Shown: positions 3 to 11,830, numbered from the stretch's first letter. The stretch is 32,000 bases of DNA from Thermodesulfobacteriota bacterium (GCA_026625185.1 CP113000.1:705622-737621), one strand, 5' to 3'. The notes: generated by a model not told the origin, from the letters alone. Numbers and translations: made by a program.

Positions 3-476
3 GAAGATGCCCAAAGAACTGCCCGCCTGCTTACGTTATCCGAAGCTAGGACGGAACAACAGGAAGGCACTTTAAAGATAGAAGGGAGCTTGGGCAAGAT
101 CATGGCCACGGGAATAAGGGATTCTAATTTTATGTATTACAACGACGGTGAAAAACTGAAAAATGCTTACGGCTACGATGAAAAGCAGGTGATGAAAGAC
201 TGGTGGCAGGCTTTTGATAAAATGAGCAAGGAATATAAGAAAAACAAGGCTTTTGATAATGCGAAAATATTATCAGATGTGAACAAAAAGGTGGTCGAAG
301 CTGCCTACAATTTTTACCGGATCGAGCCGGTGAAGGTTTCCGAGCGAGCCGGCACCATGACCGGGCTGCTCGTATTCTATGTGCTCTATAGTGTTTGGTG
401 GGGATTTGCCCTCATGTTTTTAGTTGAGGGGATGGGACTCACCATGACGAAAAAAGGAGCCAAAAAGGAAGATTAA
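3..476 (+). CDS. hypothetical protein with C-terminal membrane anchor; 5' end uncertain, possibly truncated by the window edge
   Basis: The ORF track gives 90..476 (TTG). Reading the same frame back to nt 3, I find no stop, so the gene may start left of the window. An alternative ATG at 102 lies about 13 nt after GGGAG. The C-terminal hydrophobic stretch GLLVFYVLYSVWWGFALMFLVEGMGL looks like a TM segment. No family recognised. Confidence 0.45.
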   Translation, partial: EDAQRTARLLTLSEARTEQQEGTLKIEGSLGKIMATGIRDSNFMYYNDGEKLKNAYGYDEKQVMKDWWQAFDKMSKEYKKNKAFDNAKILSDVNKKVVEAAYNFYRIEPVKVSERAGTMTGLLVFYVLYSVWWGFALMFLVEGMGLTMTKKGAKKED

Positions 477-1255
477 TGGCCGCCTTTCCCCTTAAAAATA
501 AAACCGGCAAGCAACCCTACCACAATTGCAATGACCACGGCAATGATTCCGTAAACGGCGCTATGGTGCTGTGCCATGTAAGTAAACCAGCGAGATAGAC
601 CAACCTTTTCAATGGTAATCGTTTGTTGAGTTTCCCCTAAGATCACTCCGTCCCTTATTGCCCAGCAGGTTATGGCATAATTCCCTTCCACTGCGCGGTC
701 GGAGAAATGGAGATCAAACATAAAAGAGCTATTCTCCTTGTTGATCTCAATGACGTTTTCCCTCACCCCATAAAGCCCGGCCTTTTCCTTCATTTTCAAA
801 AAACCCTCAAAAACCACGTTTCGATCATCGTCACCGGGTTTCCCGCTTAAAAGTTTGATCCTCAGGTTTTGTTTTAGAGCATCGTAACCAATCTTAAGTT
901 CTTTTTTTAAGTTTTCATTTAAAACGTCAGGGAGATTCCCCGATGAAAGAACCTTATAAAGAAAAGGAACATGAGAAACTTCAAATTGTTTGACGCTCAT
1001 CCAGAAAAAAACTACCCTCCCCTTGCGTACCAGCTTTAAGGAAGGATTGTTTTCTGACTTTACCTGCATAATTATTGTGGCCTCAGGTTGGGGAAGGGTA
1101 CCCTTAAATCTTATGGTGTCACCTCCAAAGCCTATTCCCATAGCAACCTTTTTTTCCGGCAACAAGGTAAAGCACGTTTCTCCTTTTACCGGCGGAACAA
1201 AAAAAATGAGCGAGACGACCACGAACACCAAAGTTTTAATAAAGGTTTCTTTCAT
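473..1255 (-). CDS. secreted/membrane-anchored protein, TIGR02186 (Alph_Pro_TM)-like, partner of the TauE permease
   Basis: 260 aa. It has an N-terminal signal-like segment (LVFVVVSLIFFVPPVKG) and a single C-terminal TM helix (VYGIIAVVIAIVVGLLAGFIF). It starts 2 nt after the TauE/SafE gene stop. I recall this pairing and topology for the TIGR02186 family, but the family call is from memory, not a search. Confidence 0.5.
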   Translation of the reverse strand: MKETFIKTLVFVVVSLIFFVPPVKGETCFTLLPEKKVAMGIGFGGDTIRFKGTLPQPEATIIMQVKSENNPSLKLVRKGRVVFFWMSVKQFEVSHVPFLYKVLSSGNLPDVLNENLKKELKIGYDALKQNLRIKLLSGKPGDDDRNVVFEGFLKMKEKAGLYGVRENVIEINKENSSFMFDLHFSDRAVEGNYAITCWAIRDGVILGETQQTITIEKVGLSRWFTYMAQHHSAVYGIIAVVIAIVVGLLAGFIFKGKGGH

Positions 1256-1257
1256 GA

Positions 1258-2190
1258 TTAATGCCCTCCTGCAGCTTTGGCAAGTCCAATGACGTTATCT
1301 GGGGTCACTAAGAGATCAAATAGCATCTTCACCATTACCAACAGGACGATGATGGAAAGAAGAATGCGGATCTGTTCTCCCCGAAGGAAGCGACTTGCAC
1401 GAACACCAAACTGGGCGCCGATAACCGATCCCGTAAAAAGAAATACTACCAGCACTAAATCAACCGTATGGTTCGTAATTGCCTGCTGTAAAGTAACATT
1501 TGCGGTAGTAATAACGATCTGAAAAAGATCGGTTCCCACCGCGACGATGGTGGGCATGCCGATAATATAGATCATGGTAGGCACCATAATAAACCCCCCG
1601 CCAACACCCATGAGGGCAGCCAGAAAACCCACTAAGAAACCAGCGCTAAAAGGAAAAATCGCGGAAGTCTCCAGCCCGGATCGCTTAAAATGCATCTTAA
1701 AGGGTAAGCGGGCAAAGAACAACGAAAGTTTATTGGGACCAATCTCGCCCTCTTGTACTGAAGAAGCTTTAGATTTTCTCAGGGCATTAAGGCTCTCAAC
1801 AAACATAGCGCTTCCCACTCCCCCTAGGATCAAGACATATACTGCCCGGATAACAAAGTCGAAGTTCCCCATCTCCCGGAGATACTTTACTACCTGGACC
1901 CCGACGGTTCCACCGGCAATACCGCCGATGAGAATAACCACGCCCATTTTTAGGTCCACGTTTCCCAACCTCCAGTGACTAAAAGCACCGGAGGTCGCTG
2001 CTGCACAAATTTGATTGGAATCACTGGCGGCTGCTACCGAGGGTGGAACCCCAATCATGATCAGCAATGGCGTTAAAAGGAAACCGCCACCAACGCCAAA
2101 AAGCCCGGACAAAAATCCAACCAATCCTCCAACACCAACAATAACCAGGAAGTTAAAACTCATGCCGGCAATAGGAAGAAAAATATCCAT
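1258..2190 (-). CDS. TauE/SafE (DUF81) family anion exporter/permease
   Basis: 310 aa, polytopic and hydrophobic throughout. It carries the duplicated glycine-rich motif typical of the family (LFGVGGGFLLTPLL and LMGVGGGFIMVPTM). Confidence 0.85.
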   Translation of the reverse strand: MDIFLPIAGMSFNFLVIVGVGGLVGFLSGLFGVGGGFLLTPLLIMIGVPPSVAAASDSNQICAAATSGAFSHWRLGNVDLKMGVVILIGGIAGGTVGVQVVKYLREMGNFDFVIRAVYVLILGGVGSAMFVESLNALRKSKASSVQEGEIGPNKLSLFFARLPFKMHFKRSGLETSAIFPFSAGFLVGFLAALMGVGGGFIMVPTMIYIIGMPTIVAVGTDLFQIVITTANVTLQQAITNHTVDLVLVVFLFTGSVIGAQFGVRASRFLRGEQIRILLSIIVLLVMVKMLFDLLVTPDNVIGLAKAAGGH

Positions 2191-2208: not shown

Positions 2209-2643
2209 TTATAGTTGTTCGGCTTCCTGGCTCTTTAGGAATTTTTCCCTTAACTCTAAGTACTCTTTTTTTAACGCGTACCACTCTAAAGCTCTTTTGA
2301 GGGAAATCAAGAGCTGTTCTTGTCGAAACGGTTTGGTGATATAATCAAAGGCTCCTTTTCTTACCGCTTCTTCGGCTGATTCGACTGATCCATAGGCAGT
2401 TATAATGATAATCGGAACCAACGCATCTTGCTTACGAATGGCATCCACCACATCCATACCATCCATGATCGGCATCTTAAGATCAGTGACAATTACGTCA
2501 AATTTTTTTTCTTTAATCAGATTCGAAACCTCAAGCGGGTTATTGGTTGTGGTGATCTCATAGTCCGTCTTTTCCGTGAGGATAAGCCGGATGAGGGATA
2601 ACATATCAACTTCATCATCAATGGCTAAAATTCGCGCACTCAT
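2209..2643 (-). CDS. single-domain response regulator (CheY-like receiver)
   Basis: 144 aa. Receiver signature residues are readable: D9-D10 (AIDDE), D54 (VIVTDLKMP), T82 (IITAYG), K104 (ITKP). AGGAGG lies upstream of the ATG. It is 23 nt downstream of the histidine kinase gene. Confidence 0.9.
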   Translation of the reverse strand: MSARILAIDDEVDMLSLIRLILTEKTDYEITTTNNPLEVSNLIKEKKFDVIVTDLKMPIMDGMDVVDAIRKQDALVPIIIITAYGSVESAEEAVRKGAFDYITKPFRQEQLLISLKRALEWYALKKEYLELREKFLKSQEAEQL

Positions 2644-2666: not shown

Positions 2667-4949
2667 TCAGGTCTTCCCCCGTTTTATCGGAAGCTTAACG
2701 GTAAAAACAGTGCCACTTGTTAAGGTGGGATTTTCCTCTGCGCTTACTGACTCTACTTGAATTTCCCCCCCAAATTTTTTAATAATCCCATAACTCACAG
2801 CAAGACCAAGCCCGGTTCCTTCTCCAACATCTTTCGTAGTAAAGAAAGGGTCAAATATTTTAGTTAAATTTTTTTTCATTATCCCAACTCCGGTATCGCG
2901 AAATTCAATCTCAATGTGGTCTTTTTGTTGATTAAGACGGGTCGTTATAGTGAGCTGACCTCCGTTTTTCATCGCGTCAACCCCATTGGTTATGAAGTTG
3001 AGAAAAACTTGCTGGATTTGGGAGCTATCGGCCATAACATGGGGTAAATCCGTTGCCACGTTTAACACCAGGTCAATTTTTTTGGTGAGGAGAGTGTTTT
3101 GCGAAACTTCGATTACTTTTTTTAAGTCATCATTTACGTTCATTAAATTTGTGACTTTGGCTGGGACTCGGGCAAATGTCAACAGGTTTTCGACAATTTT
3201 CTGGCAGTTAGAAGCCTGGCGCTTGATGGTCTCCAGAATTTCGAATTCTTTGCTGAGCGGGTCGGTCTTATTTAATAGATATTCAGCAAAACCTAAAATG
3301 ATACAAATGGGGTTGTTGATTTCATGAGCTACCCCTGCTGCCAGGGTACCAATGGCGGCGAGCTTTTCCGTGCGCACAATTTCTTCTTCACGAATTTGGT
3401 GTCGGCTGGTCACATCCCGGGAAAAAACTAAAACTAGTGAACCCTTTTCTCCTTCCTGAGTAAGGGGAATAAGGTGAGACAAAAACCAAAACAGTTTGCC
3501 TCCGATAATAATGTCATGCTCAAGCTGAATATCCTTACCACAGTCAATTACTTCGTGGACAAGCTTAAAAAGTTTCGCCGCCCCTTCAGGGGAAAACGCT
3601 TTATCTAATCCTTGCCCGATATACTCTTCTTTTGGTTTTCCGAAAAGTTCGGTTCCGTAGTGATTTAACGAAGTGAATCGACCGAAGTAATCAACGGTAA
3701 AGATCAAATCGCGAGACTTCTCCACCAAGGCACGATAACGTTTTTCCGACTGGGCCAACTCCTCATTGGACTGCCTGAGCTCTTCGGTTTTTATTCGAAC
3801 TTTTTCTTCTAAAGTACGGTTTAAGGTTCTTCCAAAATTGATTACGTAAAAGCCTACTAAAATTATGACCATGACCAGTACGCCGCTTCCAATAAACTGG
3901 GGGAGGTAGACGGTATGGACAACATTTTCCACCTCGGACGTGGGGGCAGCTACCGCCACGGACCATAAATAAGTAGGGTCTTCTTCGGAGAGGTGAATGG
4001 GGGTAAAGGCAACCAATTTTTTAACTTTTCCGATTATTCCCCGGTGCCAACCACTGTAGTACCATCCGGTTCCTTCTTTACCTTTAAGCATTGCTTCTTT
4101 CTGGATAGTATTGATAAGAACAAAATTTATGCTGGGGTCTCGAGCTTTACGAACTAAAAACGCATTCTCGCCTATAAAATTTTTTTCAACGTGGATAACA
4201 AAATCGCCGTTATTGTCGATAACCCAAGCATAGCCGGTTTTCCCACTTTCGACCTCTTTGGTGAACGTTTCCAGAAATTGAGTAGAATCAATAAGGAAAG
4301 CGACTAACCCGATAGGTCTTGAGTGAGAAGAATCTCGCGCTGATCTATCCGAGTATTGGTAAACCGGCGTTGCCATAATCATATAGAGATGATTGTCAGC
4401 AGGATTTTTATGGGGTTCGAATTGCCGGATAAAAACATGGTTGCGGTGTTCGGGAAGTAAGCACCATTGAAAGAAGGGAAGGGTTTTAAAATTAAAAGAC
4501 GGGCTGATAAGATATGCTTCCCTTTCGCCCACTATTTTTATGAGTTGGCCCGATGAGTCAAATAAGGCAATGGCCACGACGTGAGAATTTCTAACCGTTT
4601 TCAGAGCGATATCCATGCGATCTTCCATCCGGTTTTCCATACGCTTTTCCCCCTCTTTGCGGAATGCAGCAATGGAAGGTGAAAGACTTAAGGAAAAGAG
4701 TTCTCCTTTGAGAAATTGAATATTCTGGTCAACCATCCGAGCAATATGGCGAGCTAAAATCAGTTGTTGCTGGTTGAAATCTTCGCTGATAATGGAGCGT
4801 AGTATCCGAGCAGTAAGCAACCCTAAGAAGAGTCCTGATATGAGGAGAAAAATAATGATACTGCCTAATAATCGCAGGCGTAATCTATAGGGGGTTTTAC
4901 CTAAAGCTGAGGTTAATTCGGCTTTGTTGTTATTTTTGCTCGACATCAT
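2667..4949 (-). CDS. sensor histidine kinase with large extracytoplasmic (Cache-like) domain and PAS domain
   Basis: 760 aa. Two TM segments (LLGSIIIFLLISGLFLGLLTA and GVLVMVIILVGFYVINF) flank an extracytoplasmic region of about 300 aa. Then come a coiled coil, a PAS-like segment, the H-box AAGVAHEINNPI, and N/G boxes (FLNFITNGVDAM, RDTGVGI, GTGLGLAV). Confidence 0.9.
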   Translation of the reverse strand: MMSSKNNNKAELTSALGKTPYRLRLRLLGSIIIFLLISGLFLGLLTARILRSIISEDFNQQQLILARHIARMVDQNIQFLKGELFSLSLSPSIAAFRKEGEKRMENRMEDRMDIALKTVRNSHVVAIALFDSSGQLIKIVGEREAYLISPSFNFKTLPFFQWCLLPEHRNHVFIRQFEPHKNPADNHLYMIMATPVYQYSDRSARDSSHSRPIGLVAFLIDSTQFLETFTKEVESGKTGYAWVIDNNGDFVIHVEKNFIGENAFLVRKARDPSINFVLINTIQKEAMLKGKEGTGWYYSGWHRGIIGKVKKLVAFTPIHLSEEDPTYLWSVAVAAPTSEVENVVHTVYLPQFIGSGVLVMVIILVGFYVINFGRTLNRTLEEKVRIKTEELRQSNEELAQSEKRYRALVEKSRDLIFTVDYFGRFTSLNHYGTELFGKPKEEYIGQGLDKAFSPEGAAKLFKLVHEVIDCGKDIQLEHDIIIGGKLFWFLSHLIPLTQEGEKGSLVLVFSRDVTSRHQIREEEIVRTEKLAAIGTLAAGVAHEINNPICIILGFAEYLLNKTDPLSKEFEILETIKRQASNCQKIVENLLTFARVPAKVTNLMNVNDDLKKVIEVSQNTLLTKKIDLVLNVATDLPHVMADSSQIQQVFLNFITNGVDAMKNGGQLTITTRLNQQKDHIEIEFRDTGVGIMKKNLTKIFDPFFTTKDVGEGTGLGLAVSYGIIKKFGGEIQVESVSAEENPTLTSGTVFTVKLPIKRGKT

Positions 4950-5240: not shown

Positions 5241-7817
5241 CTACTTTTGGCTGGTAGCGCCAAAAAAATAATTTCCTTTTATGAATTCTTGGAAATACCA
5301 GTCTACGATCTTATCATTGTACATCGCCATGTCCATCTGTCGCGTGGTAACTACCACGATTCCTAAGACGGTGAGCATTTTCTCAATTGTTGCTGCTTCA
5401 AGATTTTCACCGCGGGCATAGAGATTATCTTCTTTTAAAATGGTATTAAGACCATGGTGGTTGAGGATCATGCTGATGAGCCGGGTACGCCGCATTCGGC
5501 GGGTGAGATCGGCGCCACCTCCATTAAAAATAAACTGGACATAATTATCTTGAGTATTTTCTCCGATAAAAGCATCAATGCTGGAAAAATGGTATCCCAG
5601 GCGGGTGCTAAAGTTCATATAGGTATCAGTGATGATCACATAGTTTTTATAGGTAAGTTTTTCCATCACCGTGGGGTCAGAAGCAGAACGGGCTACTACC
5701 GACATAAATCCTCGGAGGCTCACGGGACGTGGACCTGCCCAGGTTACTTGGCTCATCCCTTTCCAAAGTGCTAAAAACGGACGGCTTTTAACATCATCCG
5801 GCGTAACCCCGGAGGAAAGGGATTTAGCCTCATTTAAACCCTTGCCGAGATCGATTAAATAAACATCCAGTGGTTGGGGAATATTTAGTTTTTTCGTTGT
5901 TCCCTCAGGGAAAGAGCTTCTTTCCCCTAAGGTAAACATCTCTTGCATGGCCATCTCATGAGAAAACCGGGTAATATCATGAAGAGTCTTGCAACATTCA
6001 GGTTTGAAGTCTTGTGCTCTCGGATCAGTCAGGTTCAAAGGGGTAACATACTGGTTGATCTTCTTGAGCAACTGGTAGATGGCCGTATCTTTAAATGGTG
6101 AACTTGTTTCTTGATAAGAGTCAAGCAGTTCTTGGGCGATGCCTTGGTAAATAAAGCCATTTATTGCATCCACGGTAATTGTTTCCCCGGGGGTCACGAC
6201 CTCGGTGATCCCTGAAACATTGAAAAGCGCTGGCACCATAAATTCGCGCGCCACCGTAGCGATGTGGCTTGCCGCACTTCCAACCTCGGTAACAATGGCG
6301 CTGGCACGATCAACCACCAGTGTATAATCAGGCGGTGCATGGTGGGAGACTAAAACAGCGCCTGTGGGGAAGTGCTGCAGGTCCTCGAATGATTTCACGA
6401 GATAAACGGGGCCGCTGCCGATGCCCATGCTGGCAATGGTGCCACTCTCAGCAAGTACCGGTGAATTTGTTTTGACCATTGTCGGTATTGATGTCTTGGG
6501 AGAATGATCATGCTGACGCAATTTTAATGGTCGTGCCTGCAGAATAAAGATATTTCTTGCTTGGTCGATTGCCCATTCAATATCCTGGGGACAGCCAAAC
6601 TTTTTTTCCAGTTCCAGTGACAAGGTTGAAAGTTCAGTGATTTGAGAAGCAGTGAGAACCTGCTGGGTTTTTTTCTCAGGGGGTACGATAACATGTGCAA
6701 CGGTACCAGCTGAGGCACTTATCACCATGTTTTCCTGCTTTCCGCGTTCTTGGGAGAGGATATTTTTAGGGTCTTTTCGAGACACCCGATAGAGGTCGGG
6801 GGTTGTTTCTCCACCCACGGCACTTATTCCTAAACCGAATACCGCATTAATAATAAGGAAGTCCTCCTGAGGAAACTCGGGGTGCCGGGTATAGACAATC
6901 CCTGCGCTTTCAACCGAGACCATGGCCATCACCCCAACCGCCATAGGGATTTCGCTATAATCAAAGCCCCGGCTTTTAAAATAGTAGATAGAATGGGGGG
7001 AAAATTGACTGGTAAGGACTAACTTATAACATTTTTCGATCATGTCGCCAGGGACATTAAGAAAGGATTTATATTGACCGGCAAAACTCGCTAAGGGACT
7101 GTCCTCTTTGGCTCCGCTGCTTCGCACTGCTACGGGAAGCCGTGCTCCTTGTTGCGACACTAATCCTTCATATGCTTCCGCAATTGACTTTGCAATTTCT
7201 TCGGGAAGCGGTGTTTCTTTAATGAGGGTCTGGATGTGGTTACTTGCCTCTTCGAGGTCATGCATGGTTTTAACATCCAGTTTCTCGAGCATTTCGTTAA
7301 TACGTTCTTGAAGGCTATTTTTTTGCATAAATGTCTGGAACGCATACGTGCTGATGGCAAAACCCGGAGGTACAGGAAGACCAACGACATTTTGAATTTC
7401 TCCCAAGTTAGCACATTTTTCACCAACTGCCGCAACAGTATTCCTTTTTATTTCGCGGAAAGGAATCGTAAAAGGGTACGGTTGGATCACCTGAGGTTTT
7501 TGCAGCTCTTTTTTGATTAATGCCATGATTTTTTTCAGAGCTTCGTTTAACCCTTTGTAGGGCTGATCGGCGAGAAGATTGAGTTGTTCAACAATTTTCT
7601 GAACGCTGCTTTCCAGAAGAGAAGTGGTAGTGAAAAGGTAATTCCGGTCAAAAAGGTAATTACCGCTTAGTTTCTGTTGGGTATCGGCCATGAGTTCGAG
7701 GGCATCTCGGTTGGCTTTTAAAATTTCTTGATAATTTTCAAACCGTTGACGAAAAATTTCCCGGTCAATGGGTTTTGATCTTTTGCGCGGCTTAAAAATA
7801 TTGAATAACGAAATCAT
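5241..7817 (-). CDS. PEP synthase/PPDK-family phosphotransferase: N-terminal helical region, ATP-grasp (PPDK_N) domain, phosphohistidine swivel domain, and a non-canonical C-terminal domain
   Basis: 858 aa. The PPDK_N-like region includes VGEKCANLGEI and VAVRSSGAKEDSPLASFAGQ. The mobile-domain His motif is TEVGSAASHIATVAREFMVPA. The last 270 aa or so lack the NDL/Cys motifs I expect in the PEP/pyruvate TIM barrel. They instead match the C-terminus of the 393-aa neighbour (RLGYHFSS, GGGA..RRMRR.RLI, QMDMAMYND). Confidence 0.85.
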   Translation of the reverse strand: MISLFNIFKPRKRSKPIDREIFRQRFENYQEILKANRDALELMADTQQKLSGNYLFDRNYLFTTTSLLESSVQKIVEQLNLLADQPYKGLNEALKKIMALIKKELQKPQVIQPYPFTIPFREIKRNTVAAVGEKCANLGEIQNVVGLPVPPGFAISTYAFQTFMQKNSLQERINEMLEKLDVKTMHDLEEASNHIQTLIKETPLPEEIAKSIAEAYEGLVSQQGARLPVAVRSSGAKEDSPLASFAGQYKSFLNVPGDMIEKCYKLVLTSQFSPHSIYYFKSRGFDYSEIPMAVGVMAMVSVESAGIVYTRHPEFPQEDFLIINAVFGLGISAVGGETTPDLYRVSRKDPKNILSQERGKQENMVISASAGTVAHVIVPPEKKTQQVLTASQITELSTLSLELEKKFGCPQDIEWAIDQARNIFILQARPLKLRQHDHSPKTSIPTMVKTNSPVLAESGTIASMGIGSGPVYLVKSFEDLQHFPTGAVLVSHHAPPDYTLVVDRASAIVTEVGSAASHIATVAREFMVPALFNVSGITEVVTPGETITVDAINGFIYQGIAQELLDSYQETSSPFKDTAIYQLLKKINQYVTPLNLTDPRAQDFKPECCKTLHDITRFSHEMAMQEMFTLGERSSFPEGTTKKLNIPQPLDVYLIDLGKGLNEAKSLSSGVTPDDVKSRPFLALWKGMSQVTWAGPRPVSLRGFMSVVARSASDPTVMEKLTYKNYVIITDTYMNFSTRLGYHFSSIDAFIGENTQDNYVQFIFNGGGADLTRRMRRTRLISMILNHHGLNTILKEDNLYARGENLEAATIEKMLTVLGIVVVTTRQMDMAMYNDKIVDWYFQEFIKGNYFFGATSQK

Positions 7818-7874
7818 GTTTATCGTTTAGCAACCAAACCATTTGAAGTTCGGATGGAAAAATTTTTATTATGT

Positions 7875-7908
7875 TTTTATTCTTATTAAAAAGATGAGAT
7901 TTTGTCAA
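7875..7908 (-). promoter_or_regulatory. candidate sigma70-type promoter for the PEP-synthase-like gene
   Basis: The minus strand reads TTGACA, then 17-18 nt, then TAAGAAT, about 60 nt upstream of the ATG at 7817. The -10 element is imperfect. Hand scan only. Confidence 0.3.
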
Positions 7909-7916
7909 GGGGATGG

Positions 7917-8300
7917 TTACCTGATCCTTTGAAAAGACAAGAGAACGGAAGAATAATAACTTAAAAATATGTCGGCAGGAATTTGCGCAGTCGGTAAATG
8001 ATCATGATGTGTTTCTAATGCTCTACTTGGCCAACGAGGTTTTTTGCCATTTCTTAATCTTGCTTTATCGTAAAGGTCTTTATATAAGAGCATGTTTGCA
8101 GTCAACATGATGGTATTGATCGGATTGTTTAGTTCGTGAGTGACACCTGCGGTGAGGGTGCCAACTGCCTGAAGCTTACGGGATTGAATTAAAACCTTCT
8201 GCCGATCTTGAAGATCATGGATTATTCGATTCAGCGCCAAAACAAAATTGGTAAACTCGTCCCGATATTGGCGGTTTGATCGAAAGGGGTGAAATTTCCT
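7917..8300 (-). pseudogene. internal fragment of a sensor histidine kinase (distal HAMP helix plus HisKA) lacking sensor and ATPase domains
   Basis: The open frame is bounded by TAA at 8301-8303 and TAA at 7917-7919. It encodes ..RDEFTNFVLALNRIIHDL.. (end of HAMP), the H-box LTAGVTHELNNPIN, and ..LLSFQRIR, then stops. There is no N/G1/G2 ATPase region and no TM or sensor region. The only start is a TTG inside the frame. Confidence 0.7.
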
Positions 8301-8372
8301 TTATCAATCTGTTGCACCTTGTGGGTATTATCAAATGCATTGTTAAGGAGATTCCGATAGAAAAAAATTTTT

Positions 8373-8849
8373 TTATTTTTTGTTGAGAAGTAGGCCCACT
8401 ATTTCCCGGAAAACATCATCTAATTTTAAAACGCCGATAATCCTTCCCTGCTCTTGAATGGCTAAAAGTGGTTGGTTTTCGGAAACCATAATATGTAAGG
8501 CCTTAAAAAGACTATCTTCTGCATCTATTGCAGTTCTGGCCGGACCCATAAGGGTCTTTACGGTTTCCATCATCCGTTCGTTAGTAGCAGAGGAAAGAAG
8601 GTCTGACCAAAATTCAACTCGTTCCTTAAAGCGGTGGCCAAAGGTTGGCTCAATTCCCCTTAAGATGTCGCTTGGAGTAAGGATACCGATTAATTTATAG
8701 GCCTCATTAAACACTAAAACAGTGTTAATGCCATCTTCTAAAGCGCTTCCCAGTTGAATAAGGGCTTCTTTTAAGGTGGCCCAATAAGGAAGATGAGGAT
8801 AATTTCCCAAGGGCGTAACCAATTCTTTGATATTTTTTTTTTGTTGCAT
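8373..8849 (-). CDS. CBS domain pair protein
   Basis: 158 aa. Two CBS-like repeats are visible (..VLVFNEAYKLIGILTPSDILRGI.. and ..LLAIQEQGRIIGVLKLDDVFREIV). AGGAGG lies upstream of the ATG. Confidence 0.8.
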   Translation of the reverse strand: MQQKKNIKELVTPLGNYPHLPYWATLKEALIQLGSALEDGINTVLVFNEAYKLIGILTPSDILRGIEPTFGHRFKERVEFWSDLLSSATNERMMETVKTLMGPARTAIDAEDSLFKALHIMVSENQPLLAIQEQGRIIGVLKLDDVFREIVGLLLNKK

Positions 8850-8954
8850 GGAAATTCTTCTCCTCCTAAATGCTTGAATGAAAGATTAACTTAACTAAAA
8901 AAACACTGTACTAAAAAAAATTCTTTAGCCATGTTCAGAAAAAATCAAAACCTC

Positions 8955-10136
8955 CTAAACGTCATCAGCGGGCAGATGCTGGTTTAAAAATTCCTTAATA
9001 TAAAAGTCGGCAATTGCATCATTATACATAGCCATATCTTGTTGTTTGGTATAAGCAGTAAGTTTCCCCAATACCTCTAATTTTTTTTCTATGGCGGGCT
9101 TATCTTGCTGAAAAATTGTGGCATCGATGACATCTTCATTTATTTTGATCATTTCGAACCCGATACTTTTTAGTATTTCAGTTATTAACCTGACTCTCCG
9201 CATTCGCCTTTCTATTACCGCCCCCCCACCTTTAAAAAAAATTCTTATGTGGTTATCATCAGGGTTATTCCCCGCATAGGCCTCTACACTTGAAAAGTGA
9301 TATCCAAGCCTGATGGAAGAATTCATATATTCATCGGAAATAAAGGCAAAGCTGTTTTCACCGGTCTGTAAAATTTCTGCCTCTGAGATGGTTAACGTGT
9401 GCCCCATCATTCCAAAAAAACCACCCACATCAACCGGCGGCGGCTCGGGCCATTTCATCTTTATCAAACCTTGTAAAAAGGCACGCAAAGGGAAAGACGA
9501 GATGTGTTCCGGGTAAAGATATTTGGGATTGCCCTCTATGCCGCCCCCTAAGTCAATGAGATGGAATTGAAGCGGAATCCCGGCAACTAATTTTCGCGTG
9601 TTATTAAGTTCTTTAAAAGGTATCTCAGTAAGCTTAAACATCTCTTGCCGGGCCATTGCCTGACAAAAGGAGATAATATCGTACAGGGTTTCACAAGAAT
9701 CAACGGTTTTTTTTGGGGCTTCTTGATTCACTGAATGCGGATAGATAATCAGAGGCATAATGTTTTTCAAGGTCGGGAGCTGTTGGTGCTCTGCGGATGA
9801 ATCGTGAATGAAGCTTTCTATTTTAGCAGTGATAGCCTTAAAGGTTTCATGAAGGGCCTCATATTTATTGTTGGAGATGAAATTAAGGTTGCAGATGCTA
9901 TTTTTAACTTCATGCACCAGGCTCGCGATAGTTCGGTTAACATACTCCGGTTCGAAGGGGGAATTGCTTGTCGCCTTTTCCTTCACGTCACTAATGAGTC
10001 CTCGCAAAAGGGCATTACTGGCAAGCAAGTCTTTAAAGGATTGGTATTTTTTTTTAAAGACCACGTTTTCCCCTTGGTCTTCCCAATCAATCGCGGAATC
10101 TACTTTTTTCCCAAAAAGTTTTTGCCAGAGTTTCAT
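8955..10136 (-). CDS. paralog of the N-terminal helical region plus C-terminal domain of the 858-aa PEP-synthase-like protein; lacks ATP-grasp and phosphohistidine domains
   Basis: 393 aa. Aligning by hand to ORF 5241..7817, the N-termini match (FKKKYQSFKDLLASN vs FRQRFENYQEILKAN). The C-termini also match (CETLYDIISFCQAMARQEMF vs CKTLHDITRFSHEMAMQEMF; IRLGYHFSSVEAY vs TRLGYHFSSIDAF; FFKGGGAVIERRMRRVRLITEIL vs IFNGGGADLTRRMRRTRLISMIL; QQDMAMYNDAIADFY vs QMDMAMYNDKIVDWY). Confidence 0.8.
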   Translation of the reverse strand: MKLWQKLFGKKVDSAIDWEDQGENVVFKKKYQSFKDLLASNALLRGLISDVKEKATSNSPFEPEYVNRTIASLVHEVKNSICNLNFISNNKYEALHETFKAITAKIESFIHDSSAEHQQLPTLKNIMPLIIYPHSVNQEAPKKTVDSCETLYDIISFCQAMARQEMFKLTEIPFKELNNTRKLVAGIPLQFHLIDLGGGIEGNPKYLYPEHISSFPLRAFLQGLIKMKWPEPPPVDVGGFFGMMGHTLTISEAEILQTGENSFAFISDEYMNSSIRLGYHFSSVEAYAGNNPDDNHIRIFFKGGGAVIERRMRRVRLITEILKSIGFEMIKINEDVIDATIFQQDKPAIEKKLEVLGKLTAYTKQQDMAMYNDAIADFYIKEFLNQHLPADDV

Positions 10137-10404: not shown

Positions 10405-10905
10405 TTAATCTATACGGCGAAAAACTTTTTTCGCTGACCCACACACGGGGCAGTTTTCGGGTACCTCACCCCAAACAGTATAACCGCAGACACCGCAAAT
10501 ATGAATATCACCGGCGGGGAGATCATTGCCGGTATTAAGTTTTGCGAGGGCCTCGGCATAAAGTTGGTGATGAATTTCCTCCACTGCATTAGCATACTTG
10601 AAAGTCGTTAACGCTTGTTTATCGCCTTCCTTTTCTGCTTCAGAAATAAATTTAGGATACATTTCTTTAAATTCAAATCCTTCGCCTTCAATTGCGGCGG
10701 CTAAGTTTTCTTTGGTGGTTTTTATGCCCCCCAGTACGCGTAAATGACTGTGGGCATGAACGGTCTCAGCCTCAGCCGCTGCCCGAAACAATTTTGCAAC
10801 CTGGGGATACCCATCAGCCTCCGCCTTCTTGGCAAATGCCAGATATTTTCGATTGGCCTGACTTTCTCCTGCAAAAGCTTCCTTAAGATTTTCTTTGGTT
10901 GCCAT
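10405..10905 (-). CDS. rbr: rubrerythrin
   Basis: The diiron four-helix motifs are present (AGESQANRKY, EAETVHAHSH, EGEGFEFKEMY, VEEIHHQLY), as is a C-terminal rubredoxin-like CGVCG..CPVCG. I moved the start from the track's 10929 to the ATG at 10905, because AAGGAGG sits 8 nt upstream of that ATG. Confidence 0.9.
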   Translation of the reverse strand: MATKENLKEAFAGESQANRKYLAFAKKAEADGYPQVAKLFRAAAEAETVHAHSHLRVLGGIKTTKENLAAAIEGEGFEFKEMYPKFISEAEKEGDKQALTTFKYANAVEEIHHQLYAEALAKLNTGNDLPAGDIHICGVCGYTVWGEVPENCPVCGSAKKVFRRID

Positions 10906-11059
10906 GAAAAAAACCTCCTTTCGCTCCAAAAAATTAATTGTATTGTGCCTTATTATGCAGCTTGATAATATAATAATGTAACAAAAAATTAAAATATTTT
11001 CTAACCAAAAGGGAATCAGCCGGTTAAGTTCTCAAGTTTATAAACAAAAAAGGAGATTC

Positions 11060-11830
11060 GTGGTGCGGATAATGACCTTTAATATTCGTTTTGAAAACGA
11101 GCACGACAAAAATAACGGATGGCAATACCGTCGTGAGTTGGTTGCCGAAATCATTCAACGTCATGCTCCTTCCCTGGTGGGCACCCAAGAGGGAAAGTGG
11201 CAGCAACTCCTCTACCTTAAAAAATACTTATCCAGCTACAATAGTTACATGCCGAATCGAGTGATTGATGATACTTCTCAATACCCGACGCTCTTTTACC
11301 GGGAGAGTGAAGTTACGATTGTTCAGGGTGGTGAATTTTGGCTGTCAAAAACCCCGGCAATTCATCTCAGCAAAAATTGGGACAGCGCCTTTCCCAGAAT
11401 GATGAGTTACGGATTATGTTTAGAGCGGGGAAGTAAAAGACATTTTTTGGCTGCGGTTACTCACCTTGACCATAAAGGCAATGAAGCGCGCTGGCAGCAG
11501 GCTAAAATTATCAATACATTTATCCAAAACCACATTGGCCCAACAATTCTGATGGGGGATTTTAATGATAGGCCCGGATCTCGCGTACACCAGCTTTTAA
11601 CCGGTACAGAATCCGAACTTCGTGACTCTTGGAAAATATTGGGTCGCGAGGAAGATGAGAAAAGCATGACCCACCACGGTTTCACCGGGATGCCCAAAAA
11701 AACCCGCATGGATTGGATCTTGGTAAGCAAGCATTTTCGGGTGATTGATGCGCAGATAATCCGGGACAATAGTGAAGGCTCTTATCCTTCTGATCATTAT
11801 CCCTATATGGTTGATTTAGATTGGGCTTAA
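11060..11830 (+). CDS. endonuclease/exonuclease/phosphatase (EEP) family protein
   Basis: 256 aa. It has an EEP-type N-terminus (IMTFNIRFEN), GTQEG, a THLDH-type motif (AVTHLDHKG), GDFND and a C-terminal SDHYP. The start is ambiguous among GTG 11060, GTG 11063 and ATG 11072. AGGAGA at 11051-11056 favours one of the GTGs. Confidence 0.85.
   Translation: MVRIMTFNIRFENEHDKNNGWQYRRELVAEIIQRHAPSLVGTQEGKWQQLLYLKKYLSSYNSYMPNRVIDDTSQYPTLFYRESEVTIVQGGEFWLSKTPAIHLSKNWDSAFPRMMSYGLCLERGSKRHFLAAVTHLDHKGNEARWQQAKIINTFIQNHIGPTILMGDFNDRPGSRVHQLLTGTESELRDSWKILGREEDEKSMTHHGFTGMPKKTRMDWILVSKHFRVIDAQIIRDNSEGSYPSDHYPYMVDLDWA

Follow-up and report, generated by a model that had tools for sequence, protein, structure and literature searches.

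A PEP-synthase-like dikinase with a non-barrel C-terminal module and its cassette-less paralog in a Thermodesulfobacteriota gene run

What does an enzyme with the catalytic domains of phosphoenolpyruvate (PEP) synthase act on when the PEP/pyruvate barrel is missing, and why does a neighbouring gene encode the same protein type without those catalytic domains? These questions are raised by a gene run in a 32,000-nucleotide stretch of a Thermodesulfobacteriota bacterium genome (GCA_026625185.1 CP113000.1:705622-737621), which in its whole length we call the window. The run encodes an 858-residue PEP synthase (PpsA)-like dikinase, P0001, a 393-residue paralog, P0002, and a CBS-pair protein between them. 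All of its genes are co-directional on the minus strand, and the open reading frames (ORFs) lie exactly at the positions given in a first-pass annotation, which a model had made from the sequence alone. Our analyses place P0001 in a biochemically uncharacterised branch of the PEP-utilising His-swivel dikinases. We see about an even chance that P0001 is a dikinase with a new acceptor module, that P0002 is a non-catalytic form of it, that the CBS protein is an accessory, and that the set controls or uses sulfur-oxyanion transport. The two family members and the parts of the enzyme are as follows.

5241-7817, minus strand: P0001, the 858-residue PpsA-like dikinase (Pfam), in the order N-terminal helices, ATP-grasp, swivel histidine, C-terminal module
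7473-7817, minus strand: P0001 residues 1-115, three N-terminal helices equivalent to helices 1-3 of the P0002 bundle and absent from canonical PpsA models
6483-7472, minus strand: ATP-grasp nucleotide-binding domain, about residues 116-445 (PF01326)
6063-6482, minus strand: swivel phosphohistidine domain with linker, about residues 446-585 (PF00391), with H518 in GSAASH
5241-6062, minus strand: C-terminal part of the module, about residues 586-858, made of bundle helix 4 and the alpha/beta domain
8955-10136, minus strand: P0002, the 393-residue paralog without the catalytic cassette, made of a four-helix bundle (residues 24-171) and an alpha/beta domain (172-393)

The catalytic cassette of P0001 is that of the PEP synthase family, as the first-pass annotation had recognised. 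Pfam searches revealed PPDK_N (PF01326) at residues 129-439 (E 1.9e-90) and the PEP-utilizers mobile domain (PF00391) at residues 483-554 (E 1.9e-17), and the protein contains the His motif GSAASHIATVAREF, which includes H518. We measured residue conservation on 90 full-length relatives. In the ATP-grasp domain, K134, R232, E238, D239, E414, Q427 and R429 are at least 99% conserved, and H518, R524 and E525 of the swivel domain are 100% conserved. Given this homology, the first half-reaction of P0001 is presumably the same as that of PpsA.

Likeness to PpsA ends with the cassette. No PEP-utilizers_C TIM barrel (PF02896) was found in P0001 at E values up to 0.01, and its C-terminal part gave no Pfam, NCBIfam or PDB sequence match. 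The NCBIfam PpsA models cover only residues 117-581 (model positions 7-485 of 798), and PpsA chains in the PDB align only to residues 116-581. P0001 scores under every curated NCBIfam cutoff, reaching 370.5 bits with NF005057 (equivalog cutoff 598) and 362.6 bits with TIGR01418 (equivalog cutoff 739.75). The proposal that the C terminus is free of TIM-barrel motifs agrees with both the missing PF02896 match and the end of the PpsA models at residue 581.

The regions on either side of the cassette recur in P0002, in which no Pfam domain was found. BLASTP aligned P0001 residues 607-846 with P0002 residues 146-384 (40% identity over 242 residues, E 4e-52), a stretch that contains RLGYHFSS, GGGA..RRMRR.RLI and Q.DMAMYND. 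The N-terminal match is weak and lies inside a longer alignment (P0001 21-110 and P0002 26-115, E 7e-4). Residues 1-120 of P0001 also match other cassette-less relatives with E values down to 1e-14, which supports the N-terminal homology at the level of the family. Both recurrences had been claimed from the sequence, and both hold.

We modelled P0002 with AlphaFold2 using 51 homologs, which gave a predicted local distance difference test (pLDDT) score of 83.6 and a predicted template-modelling (pTM) score of 0.83. The model has helices at residues 24-56, 63-87, 94-115 and 151-171, followed by the alpha/beta domain. Modelled alone, this domain (the C-domain) reached a pLDDT of 90.2 and is built around an antiparallel sheet flanked by helices rather than as a (beta-alpha)8 barrel. 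The first-pass annotation had described a separate C-terminal domain and a shared N-terminal stretch. The shared homology stands; the separation does not, as in the P0002 model the N-terminal ~115 and the last ~270 residues of the enzyme correspond to a single folded module rather than two domains. The C-terminal homology block opens with bundle helix 4 (P0001 607-630), so in P0001 the cassette (residues ~116-585) seems to interrupt the bundle between helices 3 and 4.

Fold comparisons gave no specific relative of this module. VIA-align matched the P0002 model to four-helix bundles over residues 20-174 (Z 10-11.8, 115-133 residues aligned), values within the noise range of the tool for helical bundles, which therefore show only that a four-helix bundle is present. 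For the C-domain, the best match among 48,161 chains had Z 6.8, under the stated noise level, and the matches at this score, coproporphyrinogen oxidase and ferredoxin-dependent bilin reductases, are a lead at most. Foldseek searches of the PDB with whole P0002 and with the C-domain alone returned nothing significant (best E 0.09 and 0.017, respectively). A profile search of PDB sequences with the module found nothing under E 0.5, the ESM Atlas returned only the family itself as usable matches, and no Pfam family recurred consistently when 51 sequences of the module were scanned at E up to 1. The first-pass annotation had allowed that the C terminus might be a diverged canonical barrel, which would make P0001 an ordinary PpsA. 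We reject a diverged TIM barrel on three counts: PF02896 does not match, the models have an antiparallel sheet, and no barrel occurs among the fold matches listed, which for the VIA-align search of the C-domain number 50.

The module is rich in invariant polar residues. Helix 4 carries C609, H613, D614, R617 and H620, and the alpha/beta domain carries Y733, R739, H743, N758, GGG766-768, R773, R776, R777, D797, Q827 and D829. Such a dense set looks more like a putative catalytic or ligand-binding site than like simple scaffolding. P0002 retains all of the alpha/beta invariants. It has Y152, S156 and Q159 where P0001 has H613, R617 and H620, and its closest orthologs are also without equivalents of R617 and H620.

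The condition of P0002 bears on a deflationary explanation, to which we give hardly any credence: that P0002 is a dying pseudogene left by an internal deletion, and P0001 an ordinary PpsA with a diverged barrel. P0002 does lack every catalytic domain and has lost three invariant helix-4 residues, and the locus has evidently been rearranged, since its gene run includes a kinase fragment. However, the ratio of non-synonymous to synonymous substitutions (dN/dS) of P0002 against two orthologs is 0.18 overall, 0.11 in the C part and 0.34 in the N part; for comparison, that of P0001 against its ortholog in L008, the closest syntenic relative, is 0.14. Relatives of P0002 have 382-406 residues at 56-85% identity, with intact length kept down to 56% identity, and the same architecture is found in at least eight distant clusters. 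Together with the failure of the PpsA models to reach their cutoffs and the points against a barrel given above, these results already contradict the explanation. A pseudogene was rejected on the dN/dS ratios and the recurrence of the cassette-less architecture.

Phylogenetic analysis of the C-domain revealed that P0002 did not arise from the enzyme beside it. The six cassette-less sequences of its clade group together (support 0.996), and their sister is a full-length 852-residue enzyme from a metagenome-assembled genome (MAG; support 0.998). Around this clade in the tree are enzymes from Nitrospirota loci, where a receiver and a kinase are the typical flanking genes. P0001 falls elsewhere, in a clade whose Desulfobacterota enzymes have a CBS gene in front of them. 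As the two belong to different subfamilies, a recent duplication of the adjacent enzyme was rejected. The description of P0002 as the enzyme with its ATP-grasp and His domains deleted thus captures the type of protein but not its descent. P0002 is a maintained gene under purifying selection and of separate origin.

The family is large and occurs in recurring architectures. We ran the C-domain profile with HMMER against all 1.84 billion representatives of clusters formed at 50% identity; 1,438 proteins matched at E up to 1e-3, and 739 of these at E up to 1e-30. Among the 150 best matches listed, the module domain is always at the C-terminal end, and at least eight clusters of 387-441 residues are cassette-less, without ATP-grasp and mobile domain. 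Each can be aligned with P0002 over its whole length, at 27-65% identity. Two examples, one in an Acidobacteriota MAG and one in a different Desulfobacterota family (genome G051), group apart from the P0002 clade, at deep nodes that are weakly supported. An intermediate form is represented by P0027 (539 residues, on a 74-kb contig), in whose alignment N-terminal helices, His domain and module are present and only ATP-grasp is missing. By analogy with phenylphosphate synthase, such a protein would need ATP-grasp supplied in trans. P0211, P0214, P0218, P0234 and P0236 resemble P0027 by length only. The series of full-length, N-His-C and N-C forms suggests that the parts are able to work in trans.

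We checked the coexistence of cassette-less and full-length copies in the genome of the window (G000), in G600, G601 and G602, and at two G051 loci, and found both forms in each. The genome of the window has a third family member, a full-length protein of 864 residues, ~8.3 kb upstream of the window.

L006:8713-11307 (G000:C1:694712-697306): the 864-residue paralog, 70 nt downstream of an adenosine deaminase gene

Near this paralog we also observed a second TauE gene set, two receivers, a dCache kinase and a Cytidylate_kin2 protein. Of 401 genomes sampled from the phylum, 152 (38%) contain the module domain. In the family that includes the probable Desulfovibrio vulgaris Hildenborough genome it was present in 189 of 210 genomes (90%), commonly with 3-7 matches each.

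Our preferred reading of these proteins is a two-step phosphotransfer. ATP would pyrophosphorylate H518, and release of the beta-phosphate would give AMP and Pi as in PpsA. The swivel domain would then pass the phosphoryl group to an acceptor at the invariant polar site of the module; this acceptor is probably anionic, or else a protein of the same gene cluster. P0002 lacks the helix-4 residues that would face the phosphohistidine and most likely has no catalytic activity itself; it would either bind a ligand or partner as a subunit or act on the full-length enzyme or enzymes as regulator or decoy. The CBS-pair protein, a conserved accessory, probably senses adenine nucleotides and would be comparable to the stimulatory gamma subunit of phenylphosphate synthase. 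The set would work with a dCache kinase, an output-less receiver and a TauE/TSUP permease on sulfur-oxyanion transport, as in the Desulfovibrio nitrate cluster described below. The other features of the run are listed here.

473-1255, minus strand: 260-residue partner of the TauE permease, in one gene run with TauE
1258-2190, minus strand: TauE/TSUP permease (Pfam TauE)
2209-2643, minus strand: receiver-only response regulator of 144 residues, output-less (Pfam Response_reg only)
2667-4949, minus strand: dCache-PAS-HisKA-HATPase sensor kinase (Pfam)
7879-7908, minus strand: promoter-like site TTGACA-18-AAGAAT upstream of the P0001 start, just past the HisKA fragment; a consensus match only
7917-8240, minus strand: HisKA (H-box) fragment of 107 residues, a kinase remnant (Pfam HisKA, profile positions 3-29 only)
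8373-8849, minus strand: stand-alone CBS-pair protein of 158 residues (Pfam CBS, two stretches)

The HisKA fragment is 50% identical to residues 518-561, the H-box, of the intact kinase 3 kb downstream. In L008 the enzyme starts ~40 nt after the CBS gene, which leaves no room for this fragment. Promoter-like sites in the region are not more numerous than in shuffled controls. Directly upstream of P0002, on the same strand, lies a rubrerythrin gene (10405-10929), and beyond it, on the opposite strand, a gene of the Exo_endo_phos family (11060-11830). Locus L007 has an ORF of similar size and position upstream of its P0002 ortholog.

We profiled the gene neighbourhood of the family. Among 284 relatives in species-representative genomes, 80 loci were taken, and neighbours were counted over 88 loci by tblastn and ORF clustering. 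The full-flank set comprised 48 full-length enzymes with at least 4 kb on both sides, and a homolog within 4 kb was counted as a neighbour. In this set a CBS protein neighbours 39/48 enzymes, a histidine kinase 37/48, a receiver 33/48 and TauE 21/48. The CBS protein thus behaves as the partner it had been proposed to be, and in four loci of one other Desulfobacterota family its gene lies directly 5' of the enzyme on the same strand. The two-component genes, which had been noted as co-directional in the window, are likewise part of the system. The first-pass annotation had asked whether enzyme, paralog and CBS protein are conserved as a trio. We saw all three side by side in two places only, the window and its close relative L008, whereas CBS, kinase/response regulator and permease genes are widely conserved around the enzyme, so that the widely conserved set is enzyme, CBS protein, histidine kinase/response regulator and anion permeases. 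Loci L010-L086, mostly from Nitrospirota, also have neighbours that are absent from the window: a GntR/UTRA regulator (45 loci), a DASS Na+/sulfate-type carrier (Na_sulph_symp; 40), Usp (32), CitMHS (19), an LCIB-type beta-carbonic anhydrase (19) and Mnh antiporter subunits (10).

The closest link to a phenotype comes from Desulfovibrio. Locus L123 belongs to a genome that we take to be D. vulgaris Hildenborough. At ~278 kb of this genome, two ORFs of 1110 bp and 588 bp lie together with genes for a receiver, a PAS kinase, a phosphonate-type binding protein and TauE. The order and lengths of these genes match DVU0245-DVU0251 as given in PMC4001038.

L123:6348-8927, minus strand: enzyme ORF at the position of DVU0246, 859 residues from the first ATG

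P0001 aligns with this ORF over residues 21-846 (29% identity, E 7e-111), with the core residues kept. DVU0246 shares the four-part architecture of P0001 over its whole length, including PPDK_N and mobile domain without a barrel in Pfam, the helix-4 motif C-x-T-x-H-D-I-x-R-F-x-H and the core C-domain residues. Its neighbours are those of the window, namely TauE, a small partner, a PAS kinase and a receiver-only regulator. It differs in being without equivalents of R773, R776 and Q827, and its cluster, unlike the window, has a phosphonate-type binding protein and a dual-specificity (DSP) phosphatase. The examined stretch of the cluster showed neither a CBS gene nor a cassette-less paralog. Since the 859-residue frame includes the N-terminal helices of the family, the annotated DVU0246 (2235 bp, 744 residues) probably starts too late. 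Judged by end-to-end homology and by the clustering with TauE, kinase and receiver genes, P0001 belongs to the DVU0246-type family.

It was reported that disruption of DVU0246, DVU0247 or DVU0251 (enzyme, receiver and permease mutants) leads to nitrate resistance, that a mutant in the DSP phosphatase adjacent to the enzyme has the opposite fitness sign, that the kinase of the cluster is a pseudogene in D. vulgaris, and that the receiver mutant is among the strongest phenotypes there (PMC4001038). Unpublished data quoted in the same paper indicate that mutants of the G20 cluster are mildly sick on thiosulfate. For DVU0246 and Dde_0604 these are transposon phenotypes only, not a reaction. In the literature, these genes were mentioned by Korte et al. 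2014 (PMC4001038) only; a 2023 paper on D. vulgaris fitness and a paper on G20 at high pressure do not mention them.

The permeases adjoining these enzymes (TauE, Na_sulph_symp and CitMHS) could also be read metabolically. The family would then consist of "oxyanion or small-anion, water dikinases" that phosphorylate the compound imported by TSUP or DASS permeases, with paralogs differing in substrate. We think this unlikely. TSUP and DASS proteins are candidate sulfate carriers in sulfate reducers (PMC5840216), the mild thiosulfate defect of the G20 mutants fits, and the invariant Arg cluster, Gly-rich loop and His/Asp/Asn residues of the module would suit such a role, as would the several copies per genome that are common in the 189/210 genomes of the Desulfovibrio family. 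However, the loci examined hold no conserved downstream enzyme for a phosphorylated anion, DVU0246 does not keep the Arg cluster, and the tight link to two-component, CBS and Usp genes looks regulatory.

The receivers raise another alternative. Receiver homologs of ~50% identity flank family enzymes across phyla. In one MAG (L007:9001-11007), the P0002 ortholog is directly followed by an 89% ortholog of the receiver of the window, and CBS gene, enzyme, kinase and the 310-residue TauE are absent between and after the two. Used as a phylogenetic-profile query, the receiver also collects NtrC-type receivers at E 1e-28, which makes a receiver-based profile unusable. The proximity of receivers to these proteins could reflect a phosphorelay in which ATP loads H518, the group moves to the module (possibly H613/H620 or H743) and from there to the receiver Asp, or one in which the phosphorylated receiver docks on the module and switches the enzyme; P0002 would be a receiver sink or scaffold. 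The absence of an output domain from the receiver of the window, the strong receiver phenotype in D. vulgaris despite its kinase pseudogene, and the protein-type DSP phosphatase of opposite fitness sign beside the enzyme (PMC4001038) all speak for such a relay, as do two invariant histidines on one helix of a four-helix bundle. Yet P0002 lacks both of these histidines, the bundle matches are generic with no structural match to HPt domains, and most invariants of the module lie in the alpha/beta domain and resemble a small-molecule site. Co-regulation explains the adjacency equally well, and receiver units without an enzyme exist. On balance we regard a phosphorelay as decidedly unlikely.

A broader version is a long shot, and we put it forward as very unlikely: the module would be a new phosphoacceptor or receiver-docking unit, the orphan receiver would be fed by the PpsA-type cassette or would gate it, and the relay, in which the forms without cassette or without ATP-grasp take part in trans, would control sulfur-oxyanion permeases in anaerobes. 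If true, this would be a previously unknown junction of a PEP-utilising dikinase relay with His-Asp signalling.

Several points weigh against our preferred reading, in which the enzyme phosphorylates an acceptor at its module and the set serves sulfur-oxyanion transport. No acceptor, structure, assay or ligand has been described for any member of the family. The insertion topology of P0001 rests on homology to the modelled P0002, and a single pocket that is formed by the invariant residues and faces H518 is putative. With only 29% identity to P0001 and no counterparts of R773, R776 and Q827, DVU0246 may have a phenotype that does not carry over to P0001. The neighbour counts come mostly from related Nitrospirota and are therefore not independent. 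The kinase-receiver-TauE-partner unit of the window is also present in L008, L124, L125 and L127, and in the last three there is no enzyme within 8 kb. These three hold the best orthologs of the unit (TauE 67-68%, receiver 57-59% identical). As enzyme-less units exist, the enzyme is an optional part, and the permease and signalling unit can stand alone.

For this large family, neither Pfam nor NCBIfam offers a model of the module that defines it, none of the solved structures is close, and no reaction has been described. Nitrate is used to suppress souring by sulfate reducers, and loss of the family member, together with the linked permease and regulator, yields nitrate-resistant Desulfovibrio. 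P0002 presents the module on its own, as a 393-residue construct for structural and ligand work. The identity of the acceptor would name a new dikinase reaction or signalling link and help explain the regulation of anion uptake in sulfate reducers. The family of P0001 is already recorded genetically in the Desulfovibrio nitrate cluster (PMC4001038). New here are the module topology, the separate origin and purifying selection of P0002, the series of three forms and the conserved pairing with a CBS protein.

Among known systems, PpsA (TIGR01418 / NF005057; PDB 2ols, 8a8e) has an ATP-grasp and swivel-His cassette homologous to that of P0001, which matches an NCBIfam PpsA model at E 1e-110 and PpsA PDB chains at E 1e-67 to 1e-70. 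P0001 differs from it in lacking the PEP/pyruvate TIM barrel and in having ~115 extra N-terminal residues. The first-pass annotation had likened the locus to two repurposed relatives of PpsA, phenylphosphate synthase and rifampicin phosphotransferase (RPH). The likeness stands as an analogy of logic. It does not extend to the genomic context, which consists of sulfur-anion permeases and signalling genes rather than aromatic-catabolism genes or antibiotic genes.

RPH (NF041857; PDB 5hv1, 5fbs) likewise combines ATP-grasp and swivel His with a non-barrel substrate domain, and the ATP-grasp domain of P0001 matches RPH PDB chains at E 1e-55. With NF041857, P0001 scores 239 bits in two separate stretches, against a cutoff of 999, and is thus not an RPH. 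RPH was not among the Foldseek matches listed for the module. The domain order also differs: an RPH chain runs from ATP-grasp through the substrate domain to a His domain at its C terminus, whereas in P0001 the module flanks the cassette and 270 residues follow the His domain.

Phenylphosphate synthase of Thauera aromatica is likewise a PpsA-family enzyme aimed at a non-pyruvate acceptor, and its gamma subunit is a CBS protein; we set it beside P0001 by description. Its beta subunit loads the histidine of the alpha subunit in trans, and a small accessory protein stimulates the reaction (PMC6114531). It is encoded in the phenylphosphate carboxylase operon, whereas P0001 lies among permease and signalling genes, and no carboxylase-type gene was found among the ORFs scanned in the first 16 kb of the window or among the recurrent neighbours. 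Phenylphosphate synthase splits the His and phenol site (alpha) from ATP-grasp (beta), whereas P0001 fuses ATP-grasp and His. What is split there is the catalytic machinery; what is duplicated here, in P0002, is the acceptor module.

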